A stretch of DNA of 8,684 bases. It comes from a virus. Lineage: Duplodnaviria > Heunggongvirae > Uroviricota > Caudoviricetes. Location of the stretch: positions 1 to 8,684 of IMG/VR virus record IMGVR_UViG_2909246061_000003; one strand, 5' to 3'. Numbering within the stretch: position 1 is the first letter of the stretch; every line of letters starts with the position of its first letter. A model generated the notes under the pieces. It was not told the DNA's origin, made no database searches, and saw only the letters and a program-made list of their open reading frames with translations. Made by a program: the position numbers and the translations under genes. Of this stretch, positions 1 to 8,274 are shown piece after piece.

Positions 1-192
1 TCAGGAGCATTTCTGATTAACACCACCGTTAAGAATCCACCCCTCAACAGCTTCACGAAGGTATGATTTGGGGTGGGTTCTGACTGGCTTCGGAAATCCG
101 TGCCGTTTGGTATAGTTCCAGATTGTCTGACGTGATGAAACACCGAGCTTGTTCATCACTTCTTTCTCAGGAATCAGGCTGGTATCGGTCAT
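1..192 (-). CDS. Excisionase-like small DNA-binding protein (lambda Xis / AlpA-like), 63 aa
   Basis: Complete ORF on the minus strand: ATG at 192-190, TGA at 3-1. GGAG lies about 7 nt upstream of the ATG (revcomp of 201-204). The motif W-x-Y-x3-G-FPKPV-x-Y-x3-V-x-W resembles the winged-helix core of lambda Xis and AlpA-type regulators, from memory. Position at the prophage edge fits int lying further left, off-window. Confidence 0.55.
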   Translation of the reverse strand: MTDTSLIPEKEVMNKLGVSSRQTIWNYTKRHGFPKPVRTHPKSYLREAVEGWILNGGVNQKCS

Positions 193-204
193 CTTAATTC
201 TCCA

Positions 205-231
205 GGCAAAAAGAAACCGCCATCAGGCGGC
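205..231 (-). terminator. Intrinsic terminator-like hairpin between the 55-aa ORF and the excisionase-like gene
   Basis: Minus-strand reading: stem CCGCC, loop TGAT, stem GGCGG, then TTTCTTTTT (plus 217-221 pairs with 226-230; A-run at plus 208-216). The stop codon of the upstream 55-aa ORF sits in the loop. Confidence 0.45.
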
Positions 232-390
232 TTGGTGTTCTTTCAGTTCTTCAATTCGAATATTGGTTACGTCTGCATGCGCTATCTGCGCCCATATCAT
301 CCAGTGGTTATAGCAGTCGTTGATGCCCTCTGCTTCGATAACTCTGTTGAATGGTTCTCCATTCCATTCACCTGTGACTCGGAAGTGCAT
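223..390 (-). CDS. Hypothetical small protein, 55 aa (below the ORF-track length cutoff)
   Basis: Hand translation of the minus strand: ATG at 390-388, TGA at 225-223, GGAG about 7 nt upstream. Product MHFRVTGEWNGEPFNRVIEAEGINDCYNHWMIWAQIAHADVTNIRIEELKEHQAA. No family recognised. Confidence 0.3.
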   Translation of the reverse strand: MHFRVTGEWNGEPFNRVIEAEGINDCYNHWMIWAQIAHADVTNIRIEELKEHQAA

Positions 391-403
391 TTATCATCTC
401 CAT

Positions 404-427
404 AAAACAAAACTCGCCGTAGCGAGT
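404..427 (-). terminator. Intrinsic terminator-like hairpin (proximal of a tandem pair)
   Basis: Plus 412-417 ACTCGC pairs with 422-427 GCGAGT, loop CGTA. On the minus strand the hairpin is followed by TTTTGTTTT. Confidence 0.45.
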
Positions 428-440
428 TCAGATAAAAGAA

Positions 441-459
441 AACCCGCACTCGGCGGGTT
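441..459 (-). terminator. Intrinsic terminator-like hairpin (distal of a tandem pair)
   Basis: Plus 441-447 AACCCGC pairs with 453-459 GCGGGTT, loop ACTCG. On the minus strand the 7-bp GC-rich stem is followed by TTTTCTTTTAT. Confidence 0.5.
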
Positions 460-479
460 CGCATTCGTTCAAATTGCGT

Positions 480-578
480 TTACTTCTTGGCGTTCTGTTC
501 ATCCATATCGATATACCATGGGTTGCTTCCCTTGGGCATGTTTAACGACTGCTCGCGATAGTATCTGATGCGCTCCAT
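480..578 (-). CDS. Possible cIII-like micro-ORF, 32 aa (very tentative)
   Basis: Hand translation: ATG 578-576, TAA 482-480. Product MERIRYYREQSLNMPKGSNPWYIDMDEQNAKK. Loose resemblance to the ERI...LN.PG.PKNGSN stretch of lambda/P22 cIII from memory. No convincing SD. Lies in the leftward operon where cIII would be expected. Confidence 0.2.
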   Translation of the reverse strand: MERIRYYREQSLNMPKGSNPWYIDMDEQNAKK

Positions 579-738
579 GAAATACTCGCGTGAGTGCTCA
601 GGTTGCTCTCATGATACCTGCTCAGTGATAACAGGTATGTTAAGGCGCTCTCTGTACTCCATGCCTGATGCTGCAAGGTCAACGTTTACCTTGTTCTGTT
701 TTTCTTTCGATTTCTCGGCGATGTTATGCCTGACATTG

Positions 739-981
739 TCAACCCGCCTCCTTCTGAACATAACGGTTATAAATCAGTCCCTGAGGGCCATAAGGAAGCG
801 GGATGTGCAACTCCTCTGGTTCAGAAACTATCCATTCTCCGGCCATCTCCGCTGGAGAGGTAATGATAAGTTGTTTGCTAATAAAAGGACCACTCCTCTC
901 AACAACAAGCTTACCATCTTCATTAATAAAAGCTTGGATGTCAGGTGTGCTTCCACACTTGGTGATGCAGCGTTTGAACAT
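739..981 (-). CDS. Hypothetical protein, 80 aa (ORF-track frame 739..1023; internal ATG with SD preferred)
   Basis: Minus-strand ORF. The ATG at 981-979 is preceded by GGGGGA at about 6 nt; the upstream ATG at 1023 has no SD. Product begins MFKRCITKCGSTPDIQAFINEDGKLVVERSG. No family recognised. Confidence 0.4.
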   Translation of the reverse strand: MFKRCITKCGSTPDIQAFINEDGKLVVERSGPFISKQLIITSPAEMAGEWIVSEPEELHIPLPYGPQGLIYNRYVQKEAG

Positions 982-1107
982 TTTGTGTCCCCCCATTTTA
1001 TGTACGGGGTAATTATAACACATTGAAATATAGTAATATTTGACGTAGATTTCTTTTGATCTATAAGCGATTTTTTAATGCTTTTAAGTTATAAATACTT
1101 GTTTTCA

Positions 1108-1524
1108 TCACCCATCTTGCTGCGGTGCTACTATTGAAAAGTGCTCACACCCTTTAGCCCAAATAGTTTTGATAGTTGTCCAACTGACTGGAACCTTGAT
1201 TTCGATTCTCCCGCTACAGTCACAAGTTTCGCAATCATCATCACCAAAGCATTCCGGGCAGCTTATAAACGTAGTTTCTGAAAATTCACCGGATAGCACA
1301 CCCTTAGCGCCGTTCTCGGCTGTTAGTCTCTTCGGCACCATGACCCAACCATCCGGAATTACCGGAGAGTTGCCGGGTTCTTTAATGTGCAAGCGAGGCT
1401 CACCATCTTTTGGCTCAGGCCACTGGCGCTCCATGTTGATCTTCAATTTATCTTCCATAGCAGCGGTAATTTCAGCATCGCTGATGCCAGCACGGCGCTG
1501 TGCATCCCACAACAGGAAATGCAT
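1108..1524 (-). CDS. Hypothetical Cys-rich protein, 138 aa, possibly the 3' remnant of a longer gene
   Basis: Minus-strand ORF with protein-like composition, whereas the overlapping plus ORF 1169..1558 is Ser/Leu-rich and starts on TTG. C-terminal CPEC-x6-CETCDC cluster suggests metal binding. No SD before the ATG at 1524. The frame is open upstream only to a stop at 1557-1555, right at the junction where lambda-like sequence begins. Confidence 0.4.
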   Translation of the reverse strand: MHFLLWDAQRRAGISDAEITAAMEDKLKINMERQWPEPKDGEPRLHIKEPGNSPVIPDGWVMVPKRLTAENGAKGVLSGEFSETTFISCPECFGDDDCETCDCSGRIEIKVPVSWTTIKTIWAKGCEHFSIVAPQQDG

Positions 1525-1566
1525 ACAGTACGGAACTAAACGCGGAAAAGCCGCTTAAGACATTCC

Positions 1567-1598
1567 CGCTCTTACACATCCCAGCCCTGAAAAAGGGC
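1567..1598 (+). promoter_or_regulatory. nutR-like N-utilisation site: boxA CGCTCTTAC (1567-1575) and boxB GCCCTGAAAAAGGGC (1584-1598)
   Basis: Seen directly. Matches lambda nutR boxA/boxB as I recall them, with about one mismatch in the spacer. The following leader down to the cII ATG also looks lambda-like. Confidence 0.8.
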
Positions 1599-1677
1599 AT
1601 CAAATTAAACCACACCTATGGTGTATGCATTTATTTGCATACATTCAATCAATTGTTATCTAAGGAAATACTTACAT

Positions 1678-1956
1678 ATGCAACTTACAAGTACTCGCAA
1701 GAAAGCGAATGCAATTACAAGCAACATCCTGAATCGAATTGCTGTACGTGGTCAGCGAAAGGTTGCCGACGCGTTAGGGGTTAATGAATCGCAAATTTCG
1801 CGATGGAAAGACAGCTTCATCCCCAAAATGGGAATGCTTCTGGCTGTTCTTGAATGGGGTGTTGAAGACGAGGAGTTGGCGGAACTGGCTAAGCAAGTAG
1901 CCAGAATGCTGACAAAAGAAAAAGCCCCGAAGAACGGCGAATTCTTCGAGGCCTGA
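1678..1956 (+). CDS. cII: Transcriptional activator CII homologue, 92 aa
   Basis: The stretch SQISRWK...IPK..MLLAVLEWGV.D...A.LA.QVA..LT..K.P is collinear with lambda CII. ATG at 1678 is preceded by AAGGAAA. The ORF-track start at 1618 is an upstream non-ATG extension and is not used. The N-terminal 25 residues differ from lambda while the leader matches, indicating a mosaic. Confidence 0.85.
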   Translation: MQLTSTRKKANAITSNILNRIAVRGQRKVADALGVNESQISRWKDSFIPKMGMLLAVLEWGVEDEELAELAKQVARMLTKEKAPKNGEFFEA

Positions 1957-2962: not shown

Positions 2963-3541
2963 ATGATGAGCGACTCACCACGGGCTACGGCTTCTGACTC
3001 TCTTTCCGGTACTGATGTGATGGCTGCTATGGGGATGGCGCAATCACAAGCCGGATTCGGTATGGCTGCATTCTGTGGTAAGCACGAACTCAGCCAGAAC
3101 GACAAACAAAAGGCTATCAACTATCTGATGCAATTTGCACACAAGGTATCGGGGAAATACCGTGGTGTGGCAAAGATCGAAGGAAATACTAAGGCAAAGG
3201 TACTGCAAGTGCTCGCAACATTCGCTTATGCGGATTATTGCCGTAGTGCCGCGACGCCGGGGGCAAGATGCAGAGATTGCCACGGTACAGGCCGTGTGGT
3301 TGATATAGCAAAAACAGAGCAGTGGGGGAGAGTTGTTGAGAAAGAGTGCGGAAGATGCAAAGGTGTCGGCTATTCAAGGATGCCAGCAAGCGCCGCATAT
3401 CGCGCTGTAACGATGCTAATTCCAAACCTCACCCAACCCACCTGGTCACGCACTGTTAAGCCGCTGTATGACGCTCTGGTGGTGCAATGCCACAAAGAAG
3501 AGTCAATCGCAGACAACATTTTGAACGCGGTCACACGTTAG
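2963..3541 (+). CDS. Q: Late antiterminator Q, lambda-type, read from the first in-frame ATG (192 aa); native start codon apparently lost
   Basis: Product has the Zn-binding CRDCHGTG...CGRCKGVG module and is collinear with lambda Q as I recall it. The frame is open upstream to 2891 and encodes ...VAKFHSPKSP before the Met-Met at 2963, matching lambda Q residues about 6-15, but no ATG/GTG/TTG or SD is present there. Only 26 bp separate it from the O-like stop. Confidence 0.75.
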   Translation: MMSDSPRATASDSLSGTDVMAAMGMAQSQAGFGMAAFCGKHELSQNDKQKAINYLMQFAHKVSGKYRGVAKIEGNTKAKVLQVLATFAYADYCRSAATPGARCRDCHGTGRVVDIAKTEQWGRVVEKECGRCKGVGYSRMPASAAYRAVTMLIPNLTQPTWSRTVKPLYDALVVQCHKEESIADNILNAVTR

Positions 3542-3646: not shown

Positions 3647-3685
3647 AAAGCCCTGAGTTAATAGCTCTGGGCTTTTTGCGTTTTA
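3647..3685 (+). terminator. Intrinsic terminator closing a short leader transcript from the pR'-like promoter
   Basis: Stem 3650-3657 GCCCTGAG pairs with 3665-3672 CTCTGGGC (one T-T mismatch), loop TTAATA, then TTTTTGCGTTTT. Confidence 0.5.
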
Positions 3686-3958
3686 AGCACGGCCTTTCTG
3701 AAAGCACATCAAACCAAATACCAGACAGACAATACCCTCACCTTATAGGGACACTTGCTTCAACAGGAGGGACGGTTAGGACCGCCATCCTATATGGGAC
3801 GACCGCCAATAGAACCACGGCCACGGTAATAGAACTCTTCAGAGATGGCACAGTCGCTGCCGGGCATACTTTTACGCTGAGAGATATTTCTTTTGGAGAC
3901 AGCAGGGCTCTAGGGGCTGATTTTGGAGGCTCCTTCGGGAATCTGTATAAGTTCTAAT

Positions 3959-3983: not shown

Positions 3984-5585
3984 TTACAGATAAGCGACGA
4001 AATAGCCGTCAATTTTCTTTATTTTAAGTTTGTCGCCATAGATGGATAGGGGCTTCTTGAGCCATGTATCGTCTGTGGCGACATATATCTCATTATTCCT
4101 TAGCGTACCCTTAGCCTTAATTTCGGCTATATATCTTTTGTTATTATCTATCGCTGCTTTGTCTGCTCTAGCAAAATACCCAAAATTAAGTTTCATTTTT
4201 TCTGAAGAAGCAAATTCAGCAAATGGGAGCCAATGTCTTAAGCTGAACTCATCGTAATCAGTGGTTATGATAGTGTCCTTCCCTTTGGAGATGACTTCCC
4301 ACTCTTTACTCAACATTTGAGAGCTGTATGGCTTACCAGTATATATCTCTCGAACGGCTTTGAAAAAGTTGCTTTCATCCGCCACTGATATTAATAGAAT
4401 AGGGAGCAAGACATAAGCAGAACTTTTCGAGGTTTTTGCTAAGTATGCCAAAACAATCAACATCAAGATCATCGTCACCGGCCAGAAGAACCGACCAGAA
4501 GAGCGAAAAACGCCACCAACCTTCATGAGAAAGTCATTCATTGGAATTTCAATGAGATTAAATCCATAAAAGTTAATTCGATAAGTTATAGAAACGGCAG
4601 CCAGAACTAAACAGAAGTACAATACAGGAGATTTTATAATTCTCCTGAAATCTATGGACTTTCTTAAAGAGGAGTCTATCAGCATAAACAAAAATAGCGT
4701 GATGATGCCTAATCCTAGATAATTTATACCCTCAAAGTTAGCCTGTTGACTCCCATGACTCAAGATAAGATGTGAGTATCTCTGGTCTCCTGGGTTGAAC
4801 CAGCCGGCAAGATCCATGTTAAGGAATCCGAATCCAGGGTATGGGTCAGAGCCTTTAATAACAAAGTATCCGGTAGCATACATTGCGAGAAATATTAACA
4901 CAGAGTAACACGCGAAAAAGAATGCCGATCTTTTTAAAGATAAACGGTTTGTGTTCAGTTTGTTTAAAATGTCAAATGCAAAAATTAAATACACCATTAT
5001 CAGCAAATATGCATGAATGGTGACTGAGAGAACTAAAATAGCAGCCCATCTTTTAAAGCAAAAAGACCTATTGATATAAAGGTAAAATCCAAAAAGAATT
5101 AGCCACTGAGCGCCTAATGCAAAGTGACCACCGGCACGATTTAAGAATATTGGTGCAATGCAGAAGAAGCATGAACCTATTGCAGAGAATATCTCATCCT
5201 TTGTTAACTTACGAAGAACCAAATACGCAGAAAACGTCATAAGCACAAAGCAAAGATACATCCAAAGCCCGTGATATTGAAATCTGGCGGGGAGAAAGTC
5301 GCTAAAAGGCTTGAATATGAAGGCCATAATTGGGATTGAGTCGGTGTAAACGATAGACCCACCTACACCCATCCCATAGTTATAATTTAGGCCAAGGGGC
5401 CACTGCAACAACGGAGTATTTCGGAAGAAATTCCATCCTGACCAGCTTTGACCAGGATCACCTATCATAAGCCATCCAACTCTTTTGAAGTCCAGCACAT
5501 TCACACCAACATACATAGCAAACATTGATGTCGTGAATATAAACATAAATAAGGACGCTAAAATCCTTTTTTGTGCCTTAGTCAT
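3984..5585 (-). CDS. Serotype-specific O-antigen glucosyltransferase, GtrC-type polytopic membrane protein, 533 aa
   Basis: Third gene of a gtrA-gtrB-gtr(type) operon. The ATG at 5585 overlaps the gtrB stop by 8 nt (ATGACTAA). N-terminal two-thirds has many hydrophobic segments; C-terminal hydrophilic domain of about 130 aa. Markedly AT-rich codon usage compared with neighbours. No close relative recognised from memory. Confidence 0.7.
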
Positions 5586-6501
5586 TGTGTTTATTCCTTA
5601 AGATGTAACGAGGCCTAGCCTTGACTTCAATATATATTCTTCCGATATATTCACCAAGAACGCCAATGCCGATAAGTTGAATCCCGCCCAAGAACAGGAT
5701 TGAAACAAGGAGTGAAGGATATCCTCTCACGGCATTTCCAAATGCAATAGTATCGATGATCATCCAGGCTCCGTAGATAAATGCAAGCCCAGCGACTAGT
5801 AATCCAATATAAGTCCACATACGTAGAGGGAATGTAGAAAAGCTAGTAATCCCTTCTAGAGCTAAATTCCAAAGCTTCCAGCCATTAAACTTTGTGCAAC
5901 CAGCGACTCGCTCAGCTCTGGCGTATTCTACTACATCTGTTTTCCCGCCAACCCAAGACAAAACGCCCTTCATGAACAAGTTTCTTTCTGGCATTAGTTT
6001 GATATTTTCTACCACTTCTCGTGACATTAAACGGAAGTCACCGACGTTCTCTTCAATTTTGGGATTGCTGATTTTATTGTGTAGCTTATAGAACCACTCA
6101 GCTGATTTTCGCTTTAAACGACCGTCAGTAGACCTGTCTGTACGTTTGGCCAGAACCATATCCGCCCCAGCCTGCCACTTCTCAATTAGGTGGGGGATTA
6201 CTTCAATTGGGTCCTGCAGATCTACATCAATCGGAATGACCGCGTCGCCTGTAGCTTGGTCAAGGCCAGCAAACAAAGCCGGTTCCTTTCCGAAGTTACG
6301 CGTGAAGGAGAGAGGAACTACGAGTGGGTCAGCAATGGCAAGCGCGTTAATAATTGATTCTGTAGCGTCTTTGCTACCGTCGTTAATGAAGACTATTTCG
6401 ACTTCATGCTGCTGAAGCCCTTCAAATTCCCGCACGGTTTTATAGAAGATTGGAATTGCTTCCTCTTCATTAAACACAGGAACGACCAGAGAAATTTTCA
6501 T
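5578..6501 (-). CDS. gtrB: Bactoprenol glucosyltransferase GtrB (GT2 family), 307 aa
   Basis: Near-collinear with Shigella/Salmonella phage GtrB from memory ([23 protein letters not shown]...FINDGSKD...DVDLQDP...). ATG at 6501 overlaps the gtrA stop (ATGA). Confidence 0.9.
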
Positions 6502-6860
6502 TTCACATCCCTAAAGACAATGAACTTTGAATAAATAAACCCGCACACCAGACTGATGGCGGAGAACAGAATTAAGGTGATGATTGGTGCCAGACCAGAT
6601 TTATCCGCCGCCCAACCCACAGCTGCGCTAAGCGTCCCCATAAAGCCGACGTAAAGCATGTATCGCATGGTTGTTGTGGATGACTTAAACGTGAATCTGG
6701 CATTTGCGAAGAAGCTAAATGACACAGCCACAACGAACCCGGCAAAGTTGCCAAGGGCCTGTCCTGTATGGAATGCATAGATGCAAATTGCGAACACTAC
6801 CCAGTGAATGAGCGTGTTAATGACACCTATCGATGTGTACTTGGCGAATAACTTTAACAT
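6498..6860 (-). CDS. gtrA: Bactoprenol-linked glucose translocase (flippase) GtrA, 120 aa
   Basis: From the internal ATG at 6860 the product [23 protein letters not shown]... matches GtrA at its usual 120-aa length. The ORF-track start at 6923 is a GTG extension and is not used. Confidence 0.85.
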
Positions 6861-6936
6861 TATAGAAATCAGTGAATTCGGAAAGGTCTGAAGTGTAGCA
6901 CCACAAACGCTATTGATCGACACCGCCGATCAGTAC

Positions 6937-6950
6937 TACTGTATTAATAT
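6937..6950. promoter_or_regulatory. Left half of an interrupted LexA (SOS) box: TACTGT plus the ATTAATAT centre
   Basis: Joining 6937-6950 to 8275-8280 (removing the IS and one copy of the duplication) gives TACTGTATTAATATACAGTA, i.e. CTGT-N8-ACAG with an AT-rich centre, close to the TACTG(TA)5CAGTA consensus. Confidence 0.6.
6943..6950. repeat. Target-site duplication ATTAATAT, left copy
   Basis: Identical 8-mer directly abuts both IS termini (6943-6950 and 8267-8274). Confidence 0.75.
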
Positions 6951-8266
6951 GGGTCTTCCCTTGTTGTGGTGGCTGAAGGCATGATAATGGTGTATTTAAT
7001 CGCCAGAGGTCACCGCCATGGACGAAAAGTCCCTCTACGCTCATATTCTCAACCTGTCCGATCCGTGGCAGGTAAAGTCCCTTTCTCTCGATGAAAATGC
7101 CGGTTCTGTTACTGTCACTATTGAGATCGCTGAAAACACCCGGCTAGCCTGTCCGGCCTGCGGTAAATCCTGTTCTGTTCACGATCACCGTCATCGTAAA
7201 TGGCGCCATCTTGATACCTGCCAGTTCACCACTATTGTTGAAGCCGATGTTCCACGAATTATGTGTCCGGAGCATGGCTGTCAGACGTTGCCTGTTCCGT
7301 GGGCTGGCCCCGGAAGCCGGTATACGTTGCTGTTCGAATTGTTCGTTCTCTCATGGCTGAAAATCAGCACCGTTGATGCTGTCAGGAAGCAACTTAAGCT
7401 CAGCTGGAATGCGGTTGACGGCATTATGACCCGGGCAGTTAAGCGAGGTCTTGCCCGGATAAAAAAGCCATTATCCGCCCGTCATATGAATGTGGATGAG
7501 GTCGCCTTTAAAAAAGGACATCGTTACATAACGGTGATCTCCGATCGCGATGGTCGGGCGCTGGCCTTAACGGATGATCGCGGCACAGAGAGTCTTGCCG
7601 GCTATCTTCGCACACTCACTGATGGGCAGTTGCTGGCTATCAAAACGCTCTCAATGGACATGAACGCGGGCTATATAAGAGCAGCGCGCATCCACTTACC
7701 CAGCGCGGTTGAGAAAATCGCCTTTGACCGCTTCCATGTGGCGAAGCAACTGGGCGAGGTAGTTGATAAAACCCGTCAGAATGAACATCCGCACCTCCCT
7801 GTTGAAAGCCGACGCCAGGCAAAAGGAACCCGCTTCCTGTGGCAGTACAGTGATAAGTGGATGACTGAATCCCGGCAGGAAAAGCTGATGTGGCTGCGTG
7901 CACAGATGAAGCTGACGAGCCAGTGCTGGGCGCTGAAAGAGCTGGCAAAGGATATCTGGAACAGGCCATGGAGCGAGGAAAGGCGGAGTGACTGGCAGAG
8001 ATGGCTGGCGCTGGCGGCTAACAGTGACGTTCCCATGATGAAAAATGCTGCGAAAACGATAGGAAAAAGGCTGTACGGGATCCTGAATGCGATGCGACAC
8101 AGTGTCTCAAACGGAAATGCGGAGGCACTTAACAGCAAGATAAGGTTGCTGAGAATAAAAGCCAGGGGATACCGAAACCGGGAGCGCTTTAAACTGGGAG
8201 TGATGTTCCACTACGGTAAGCTGAATATGGAGTTCTGAGCCTTCCCACCATGATCGGGGAAGACCC
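6951..8266 (+). mobile_element. ISL3-family insertion sequence, about 1.3 kb, with imperfect terminal inverted repeats
   Basis: Left end GGGTCTTCCC...GGTGG..GAAGGC (from 6951) mirrors the reverse complement of the right end (...GCCTTCCCACC...GGGGAAGACCC ending at 8266). Contains a single transposase ORF and is flanked by an 8-bp direct repeat. Confidence 0.75.
7018..8238 (+). CDS. ISL3-family transposase, 406 aa
   Basis: ATG at 7018. N-terminal Cys/His zinc-ribbon (CPACG...C..H.H) followed by a long catalytic region, typical of ISL3-type transposases from memory. The three antisense ORFs within it are taken as artefacts. Confidence 0.85.
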   Translation: MDEKSLYAHILNLSDPWQVKSLSLDENAGSVTVTIEIAENTRLACPACGKSCSVHDHRHRKWRHLDTCQFTTIVEADVPRIMCPEHGCQTLPVPWAGPGSRYTLLFELFVLSWLKISTVDAVRKQLKLSWNAVDGIMTRAVKRGLARIKKPLSARHMNVDEVAFKKGHRYITVISDRDGRALALTDDRGTESLAGYLRTLTDGQLLAIKTLSMDMNAGYIRAARIHLPSAVEKIAFDRFHVAKQLGEVVDKTRQNEHPHLPVESRRQAKGTRFLWQYSDKWMTESRQEKLMWLRAQMKLTSQCWALKELAKDIWNRPWSEERRSDWQRWLALAANSDVPMMKNAAKTIGKRLYGILNAMRHSVSNGNAEALNSKIRLLRIKARGYRNRERFKLGVMFHYGKLNMEF

Positions 8267-8274
8267 ATTAATAT
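8267..8274. repeat. Target-site duplication ATTAATAT, right copy
   Basis: See left copy. Confidence 0.75.

Follow-up and report, generated by a model that had tools for sequence, protein, structure and literature searches.

The open reading frame and its parts

The window, meaning the whole 8,684-nt stretch of DNA that was analysed, contains a multiply deleted lambdoid prophage remnant located beside sbcB. On the minus strand of this remnant, an open reading frame (ORF) at 1108..1524 starts with ATG and encodes 138 amino acids, exactly as listed in a preliminary description made from the letters alone. The ORF contains LLWDAQRRAGISDAEITAAMEDKLKINMER at aa 4-33 and a cysteine cluster of the form CPEC...CETCDC (CPECFGDDDCETCDC) at aa 89-103. 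Its parts are the following:

1108..1524, minus strand: 138-aa ORF, corresponding to residues 86-223 of an intact 223-aa gene for DUF550 plus a Cys module; a 5′-truncated remnant (ORF listing, blastn against the PSS-10 locus L001, translation of L001 6880-6209)
1369..1524, minus strand: C-terminal half (last two helices) of a PF04447/DUF550 MazZ-like domain, aa 1-52 (Pfam match, alignments to MazZ 7ODY)
1111..1377, minus strand: intact C-terminal module, aa 50-138 (relatives in 90%-identity clusters, partner domains, NT1N25 copy)
1207..1260, minus strand: putative single zinc site, aa 89-106 CPECFGDDDCETCDCSGR, with C89/C92/C98/C101 (invariant in alignments A4 and A5, motif counts)

Judging from its sequence, the 138-aa ORF is not a chance frame, since its residues 1-52 match Pfam PF04447 (dATP/dGTP pyrophosphohydrolase, formerly DUF550) with an E-value of 2.8e-19 (69.6 bits against a cut-off of 23), and since its product is identical to residues 86-223 of a protein from E. 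coli PSS-10. PHROG families without assigned function match both halves of the ORF, and elsewhere the 138-aa product is already known under the annotation "DUF550 domain-containing protein". Searches with NCBIfam and PADLOC returned no match for either the 138-aa ORF or the intact 223-aa protein. Some plus-strand ORFs also overlap the region (1169-1558 and others), and these were treated as antisense shadows of the real gene.

The intact parent gene in E. coli PSS-10

The best match for the whole window is E. coli PSS-10, whose locus is called L001 here. This strain has the same degraded prophage at the same chromosomal site beside sbcB, with the same neighbouring genes. In PSS-10, the frame (L001 6880-6209) remains open upstream to an ATG, giving a protein of 223 aa, and the Shine-Dalgarno (SD) sequence AAGGTG precedes this start codon. 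The 138 aa encoded in the window are 100% identical to residues 86-223 of the PSS-10 protein (WP_405000300.1). Thus, the window ORF is the back 62% of a 223-codon prophage gene, and the window copy differs from that of PSS-10 by the lack of residues 1-85 and of 3.6 kb of upstream genes, a lineage-specific deletion. The closest database homologues are likewise 223 aa or longer, which answers affirmatively the question, raised in the preliminary description, of whether homologues extend further at the N-terminus. The same description had placed the gene in the leftward accessory region of a lambdoid prophage, in agreement with the position of the parent gene in the early-left accessory region.

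Three segments make up the parent protein, namely a short N-terminus of helical character, a MazZ-like all-alpha dNTP pyrophosphohydrolase domain (DUF550/PF04447) and, at the C-terminus, a four-Cys module of 88 aa. In RefSeq, such proteins of E. coli prophages are named 'DUF550 domain-containing protein'; examples are the PSS-10 protein itself and the 223-aa relatives P0121-P0130. The RefSeq annotation of PSS-10 splits the 223-aa gene into a 'partial' pseudogene (L001 6761-6880) and a 192-aa CDS (6209-6787, in which the first codon encodes Ile), although the parent frame is actually continuous from the ATG at 6880.

A 3.6-kb deletion next to codon 86

In a pairwise comparison with PSS-10, window positions 1-1525 correspond without gaps to L001 5102-6626, while the sequence from window 1524 onward corresponds to that from L001 10221 onward. 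Thus, 3,594 bp of PSS-10 (L001 6627-10220) have no counterpart in the window. The two flanks meet here:

1524..1525, no strand: deletion junction with a 2-bp TA microhomology (ungapped comparison; identical junction in L002 and L003)

The junction sequence is GGAAATGCATACAGTACGGAAC. The ATG of the ORF (1524-1522) is the internal Met86 codon of the parent gene and lies directly on this junction. The loci L002 and L003 have not only the identical junction but also the same neighbours as the window. Window 900-1800, which covers the ORF and its downstream flank, was also compared by megablast with 5,426 complete E. coli genomes. It matched 1,567 of them, but no match crosses 1528, and the number of genomes in this collection that have the junction is zero. 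In an index of public draft and read-archive assemblies, the exact 138-aa product occurs in 83 blocks, a distribution that fits one widely sampled clone and that by itself is no proof of selection. One isolate with this allele is GCA_016686875.1.

The difference between both copies could in principle also be read as an insertion in PSS-10. This reading was rejected in favour of a deletion because 223 aa is the common form and because the right flank of the window continues into the cro gene of intact prophages. The deletion removed the native ribosome-binding site (RBS), the start codon and the first 85 residues of the parent gene, and with them helices 1-2 of the enzyme domain and both metal-binding motifs.

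Upstream context and expression signals

The sequence that now precedes the ORF comes from the other side of the deletion. It contains these features:

1526..1558, plus strand: 3′ remnant of a cro-like gene (window 1524 = L005 2501, within the cro-like HTH gene L005 2320-2535 of an intact prophage)
1567..1598, plus strand: nutR boxA CGCTCTTA and boxB GCCCTGAAAAAGGGC, then the tR1 region as far as cII (alignment with lambda 38199-38459)
1678..1956, plus strand: cII gene, 92 aa, divergent from the ORF (Pfam PF05269, E 1.7e-42)
1687..1700, minus strand: TTGC-N6-TTGT at the exact position of the lambda CII box and pRE -35 region (lambda alignment and sequence check)

Window 1524-1558 is the last 35 nt of the cro-like gene in the intact relative L005. 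Further on, window 1565-1680 is almost identical to the lambda nutR boxA/boxB, tR1, and the ribosome site and start of cII, with cII itself diverging. The cro remnant, nutR, tR1 and cII are all oriented away from the ORF, and cII has here lost its own promoter.

The ORF has no SD in the 12 nt before its ATG (GTTCCGTACTGT), and a consensus scan of the minus strand between 1525 and 2000 found no sigma-70 consensus promoter. Together with pL, the entire left operon upstream of the ORF has been deleted. Thus, the 138-aa ORF does not combine a start codon of its own with an RBS and a promoter or operon context. By analogy with lambda, the TTGC-N6-TTGT box would be the equivalent of pRE. No other candidate for a leftward promoter lies upstream of the ORF, and this one would depend on CII. 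Transcription from pRE would be expected to begin near 1661 and to proceed leftward into the truncated ORF. A second, perfect TTGC-N6-TTGC lies 24 bp deeper in cII (reverse complement of 1711-1724).

On the opposite strand at the 3′ end of cII, there is a terminator-like hairpin with a T-run (1922-1954, minus strand), located where the lambda oop RNA terminates. This hairpin has no match in Rfam, and a scan of the whole window at the Rfam gathering thresholds gave none either.

The remnant of the enzyme domain

The PF04447 match of the window ORF covers only profile positions 45-96 of 97, which does not amount to a complete domain, while the intact protein of PSS-10 covers positions 1-96. In the intact protein, EALE occupies residues 69-72 and EWAD residues 82-85, so that EWAD ends right before Met1 of the window ORF. 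These belong to a KExxE...ExxD (KEALE...EWAD) motif that was found in 121 of the 122 DUF550 homologues retrieved. The acidic metal-binding motifs ExxE ... ExxD are absent from the window ORF.

The counterpart of this domain with a known structure is MazZ of cyanophage S-2L (PDB 7ODY), to which the protein was aligned both as a single sequence (E 0.49) and as a family profile (E 0.004). In both alignments, E..D falls on E50/D53 of MazZ (numbering of the paper), and in that of the single sequence E..E also falls on E35/E38. In MazZ, E35, E38, E50 and D53 coordinate three catalytic metal ions (PMC8342488). Since EWAD ends at residue 85, just before Met1 of the window ORF, none of the metal ligands is left, nor are helices 1 and 2. 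What is retained in aa 1-52 is homologous to the last two helices of DUF550/PF04447 enzymes, such as the DUF550 protein of Acinetobacter phage SH-Ab 15497 and S-2L MazZ, and includes their K..N..R.W helix. Here, K26, N30, R33 and W35 of the ORF align with K76, N80, R83 and W85 of MazZ, residues that complete the active-site pocket of the neighbouring chain (PMC8342488). In contrast to these enzymes, the window ORF lacks the first half of the domain with its ExxE and ExxD metal ligands. The likeness of the N-terminus to the terminal helix of MazG/HisE-type pyrophosphohydrolases, which the preliminary description had suggested, is borne out in that this segment is the last part of the domain with that fold (PF04447, 7ODY profile).

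The family to which the parent belongs has members of known function. DUF550 proteins of Z-genome phages hydrolyse dGTP/dATP, and the only members for which this conversion to dNMP and PPi has been reported are those of Z-genome phages (PMC12884076, PMC8342488). The DUF550 proteins of lambdoid prophages are thus homologues, in phages with ordinary DNA, of the dGTP/dATP pyrophosphohydrolases of Z-genome phages. Unlike the latter, they have no link to purZ or to Z-genome synthesis, and the parent protein has an additional C-terminal Cys module that MazZ lacks.

These comparisons bear directly on the function proposed in the preliminary description, where the ORF was seen as a candidate for host takeover or anti-defence, i.e., as an active MazG/HisE-type pyrophosphohydrolase with a zinc module. 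The homology to PF04447, with its nucleotide-hydrolysing Z-phage members, and the early-left accessory slot of the parent gene speak for such a role. Nevertheless, the ORF has been left with the profile positions that follow both acidic motifs and the first two helices, its translation signals and operon promoter have been lost, and PADLOC gave no hit for it. The probability of an active enzyme is therefore close to negligible. For the enzyme part, the homology indicates an inactive fragment, an outcome that the preliminary description had itself foreseen.

A second possibility is a dominant-negative or regulatory role, in which the fragment would pair with full-length DUF550 proteins from lambdoid phages, either co-resident or superinfecting, and so poison these enzymes. 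It could be transcribed from pRE with a matching CII supplied in trans. The retained K26, N30, R33 and W35 are residues that would contribute to the active site of a neighbouring chain, a CII box is located upstream at the position of lambda pRE, and E. coli prophages frequently carry DUF550 genes, as illustrated by the frequent megablast matches to window 900-1800. This proposal is, however, purely inferential; the ORF lacks an SD, and a chance deletion junction is an unlikely origin for a regulator. We regard it as extremely improbable.

The C-terminal four-cysteine module

In contrast to the enzyme domain, the C-terminal module is complete in the window ORF. Its pattern is GNSPV.PDGW..VP..LTAENGAKG.LSGEFSET...CPECFGDD.C.TCDGSGRIE..VPV.WTTIK.IW.KG. 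A search of 90%-identity clusters gave 305 relatives, and at 50% clustering there are at least 1,322 representatives. The module is C-terminal in 363 of the 380 copies examined, and copies from proteins that are otherwise unrelated share about 75-100% identity. Among the recognisable partners are DUF551, Ead/Ea22, DUF550, Lar, ASCH and DUF3850, although most partners are without a Pfam match. There are also natural proteins of 92-130 aa (up to 150) that consist of a short unrelated leader and the module. In addition, the module is found in isolated temperate phages, for instance, in Sb31 of Salmonella phage ST64B and in genes labelled Ea22 or EaA. The module is a domain that is shuffled among early-left genes of enterobacterial prophages; a conserved CPEC...CxTCDGSG unit has been joined to many unrelated N-terminal domains.

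An example is found in E. coli NT1N25 (L006 1709-2461), where a 250-aa 'DUF551' protein has an unrelated N-terminal part of 160 aa followed by the identical 88-aa module. The DNA of this locus is 100% identical to window 900-1374. Consequently, the start of the module is a mosaic recombination boundary.

The module belongs to no curated family and has no solved structure; a Pfam search at E-values up to 10 gave no match for it, and no paper on this four-Cys module was found in the literature. Structure prediction with AlphaFold2 yielded models that were too poor to interpret, both for the 89-aa module (alignment of 101 sequences, pLDDT 63, pTM 0.30) and for the 223-aa relative P0121 (61 sequences, mean pLDDT 55); a likely cause is that the homologues share 75% identity or more. 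A Foldseek search of the PDB with the low-confidence model of the module returned one match, which at E 8.8 was unusable. When PDB sequences were searched with the module profile, the top matches were de novo designed TIM barrels; these were judged spurious, as they arose through a repeated W..K..W.KG string.

The cysteine motif compared with DnaJ and Ea22

The ORF has six cysteines, four of which (C89, C92, C98 and C101) are conserved in the family. These are the invariant cysteines of the family consensus CPECFGDDxCxTCDGSGRIE. As for the others, C103 stands where the consensus has the Gly of CDGSG (26 of the 380 module copies have this variant), and C126 is not conserved, being I or V in most relatives. 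The CPEC-x5-CxTCDGSGRIE stretch resembles two adjacent zinc-knuckle motifs of the DnaJ Cys-rich domain (PF00684, 1EXK), and some database entries label relatives of the module 'molecular chaperone DnaJ' or 'DnaJ-like'. In an hhalign comparison with the Cys-rich region of E. coli DnaJ, a probability of 74% was obtained over 24 columns, while an hmmsearch of PDB sequences with the module profile reached DnaJ 1EXK at only E 0.076. The PF00684 profile (DnaJ_CXXCXGXG) does not match the module even at an E-value of 10.

The module has two CxxC units (CPEC and CETC), and thus one possible Zn site, whereas DnaJ has four units and two sites. Only the second unit of the module has an xGxG tail in the consensus, and the window copy reads CDCSG instead of CDGSG at this point. 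Moreover, the module has no J-domain, and the likeness is limited to the motif. Because the four-Cys motif is conserved and has a DnaJ-type CxxCxGxG similarity, a single zinc site in the module is plausible. The CPEC...CETCDC cluster, which had been singled out earlier as a likely zinc-binding module, is the motif of the module.

A further relationship concerns the Ead/Ea22-like exo-xis proteins (PF13935), since the same module ends many proteins that start with an Ea22-type coiled coil. PF13935 matches only these other module-bearing proteins and has no match in the window ORF. Ea22 proteins carry a 'repertoire' of differing C-terminal domains (PMC7093339), and an NMR structure of the C-terminal domain of lambda Ea22 has been published (PMC10834534); the search of PDB sequences with the module profile did not retrieve this domain. 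The pro-lysogenic effect that has been reported for Ea22 is not known to depend on the module described here.

The intact state of the module raises the question of whether the fragment still supplies a working Cys module, in the way of the natural short 'leader + module' exo-xis proteins, for instance, by means of a zinc knuckle that would contact a partner from host or phage. None of the four conserved cysteines or of the invariant residues around them is missing, there are natural proteins between 92 and 150 aa with only a short unrelated N-terminus in front of the module, and the module is strongly conserved throughout its many representatives. By contrast, neither an SD nor a sigma-70 consensus promoter serves the ORF and pL is gone. 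The first 50 residues of the ORF represent one half of a helical bundle, which is likely to leave them exposed and unstable, and a minority replacement, G103C, lies within CxxCxGxG in the window copy. On balance, such a residual role is unlikely, and we consider the complete module to be part of a probably dead fragment.

A CxxCxGxG pair is also present in another protein of the window, the Q-type antiterminator (2963-3541, plus strand), as CRDCHGTGRV...CGRCKGVGY, with a sub-threshold Pfam DnaJ_CXXCXGXG match (E 4.2e-5). Since both this protein and the module carry one, this type of motif occurs twice in the window, in unrelated proteins.

A probable pseudogene fragment

Taken with the evidence above, the ORF is very probably a non-functional, at best weakly expressed, pseudogene fragment of an early-left DUF550 gene. 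In this account, the prophage had lost pL, N, cI and pR before the 3.6-kb deletion occurred. This illegitimate deletion joined codon 86 of the parent to the last 35 nt of cro, taking away the SD, the start codon, the first 85 residues and all metal-binding acidic residues (ExxE, ExxD). An internal Met codon lies at the junction by accident and, consequently, gene callers report a 138-aa ORF. Any product would be unable to form the four-helix catalytic unit. The truncation, the junction, the lost motifs and the missing SD and sigma-70 consensus are seen directly in the sequence; from them, we infer that the fragment is neither expressed nor active.

Some observations run against the reading as a remnant: the ORF is still open and has an ATG, its exact product recurs in the 83 indexed blocks, the module is complete, and there is a pRE-like CII box upstream that could allow conditional transcription in the leftward direction. 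If the ORF were translated, the module could thus have some residual function. Nevertheless, a module function, a half-subunit and an active enzyme are all much less likely than a dead remnant. A broader speculation, which we consider very unlikely, would be that the module is an autonomous adaptor that sends diverse early-left effectors to one host or phage partner, and that the ORF, expressed from the CII-dependent pRE, supplies either this module or a poisoning DUF550 half-subunit against superinfecting lambdoid phages.

For the annotation of the locus, this means that the "Cys-rich 138-aa protein" should be corrected to a 5′-truncated DUF550 pseudogene. Having lost the first 85 residues, the metal ligands, the RBS and the operon promoter, it is not a good candidate for host takeover or anti-defence. 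The role of DUF550 and that of the Cys module would be better studied in an intact copy, for instance, the 223-aa PSS-10 allele.

Decay and other cargo of the prophage

Losses are also observed elsewhere in the prophage. The genes cI and N, the promoters pL and pR, and most of cro are absent from the window prophage, and a recT fragment is adjacent to this region even in PSS-10. To the right, the Q-type antiterminator gene comes immediately after the replication gene O (2139-2936), with the helicase and nin genes absent. On the left arm (about 480-761, minus strand; L001 5581-5862), a homologue of DNA polymerase III theta (HolE/HOT-like) that has an internal stop is listed by RefSeq as a pseudogene in PSS-10, which is further evidence of decay in this arm.

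An apparently intact O-antigen modification cassette (3984-6923, minus strand) encodes a DUF6311 membrane protein (gtrC-like, 533 aa), a GT2 glycosyltransferase (gtrB/yfdH-like) and a GtrA-family flippase, and is probably the cargo that the remnant has kept. In relatives, the annotation includes a short tailspike-like fragment around 3676-3957. Finally, an ISL3-family insertion sequence of 1,316 bp (window 6951-8266) lies between gtrA and a umuD-like gene. Its transposase is encoded at 7018-8238 on the plus strand, its terminal inverted repeats are GGGTCTTCCC/GGGAAGACCC, and it is flanked by an 8-bp target duplication, ATTAATAT, at 6943-6950 and 8267-8274. This insertion is recent, as it is absent from PSS-10, L002 and L003.
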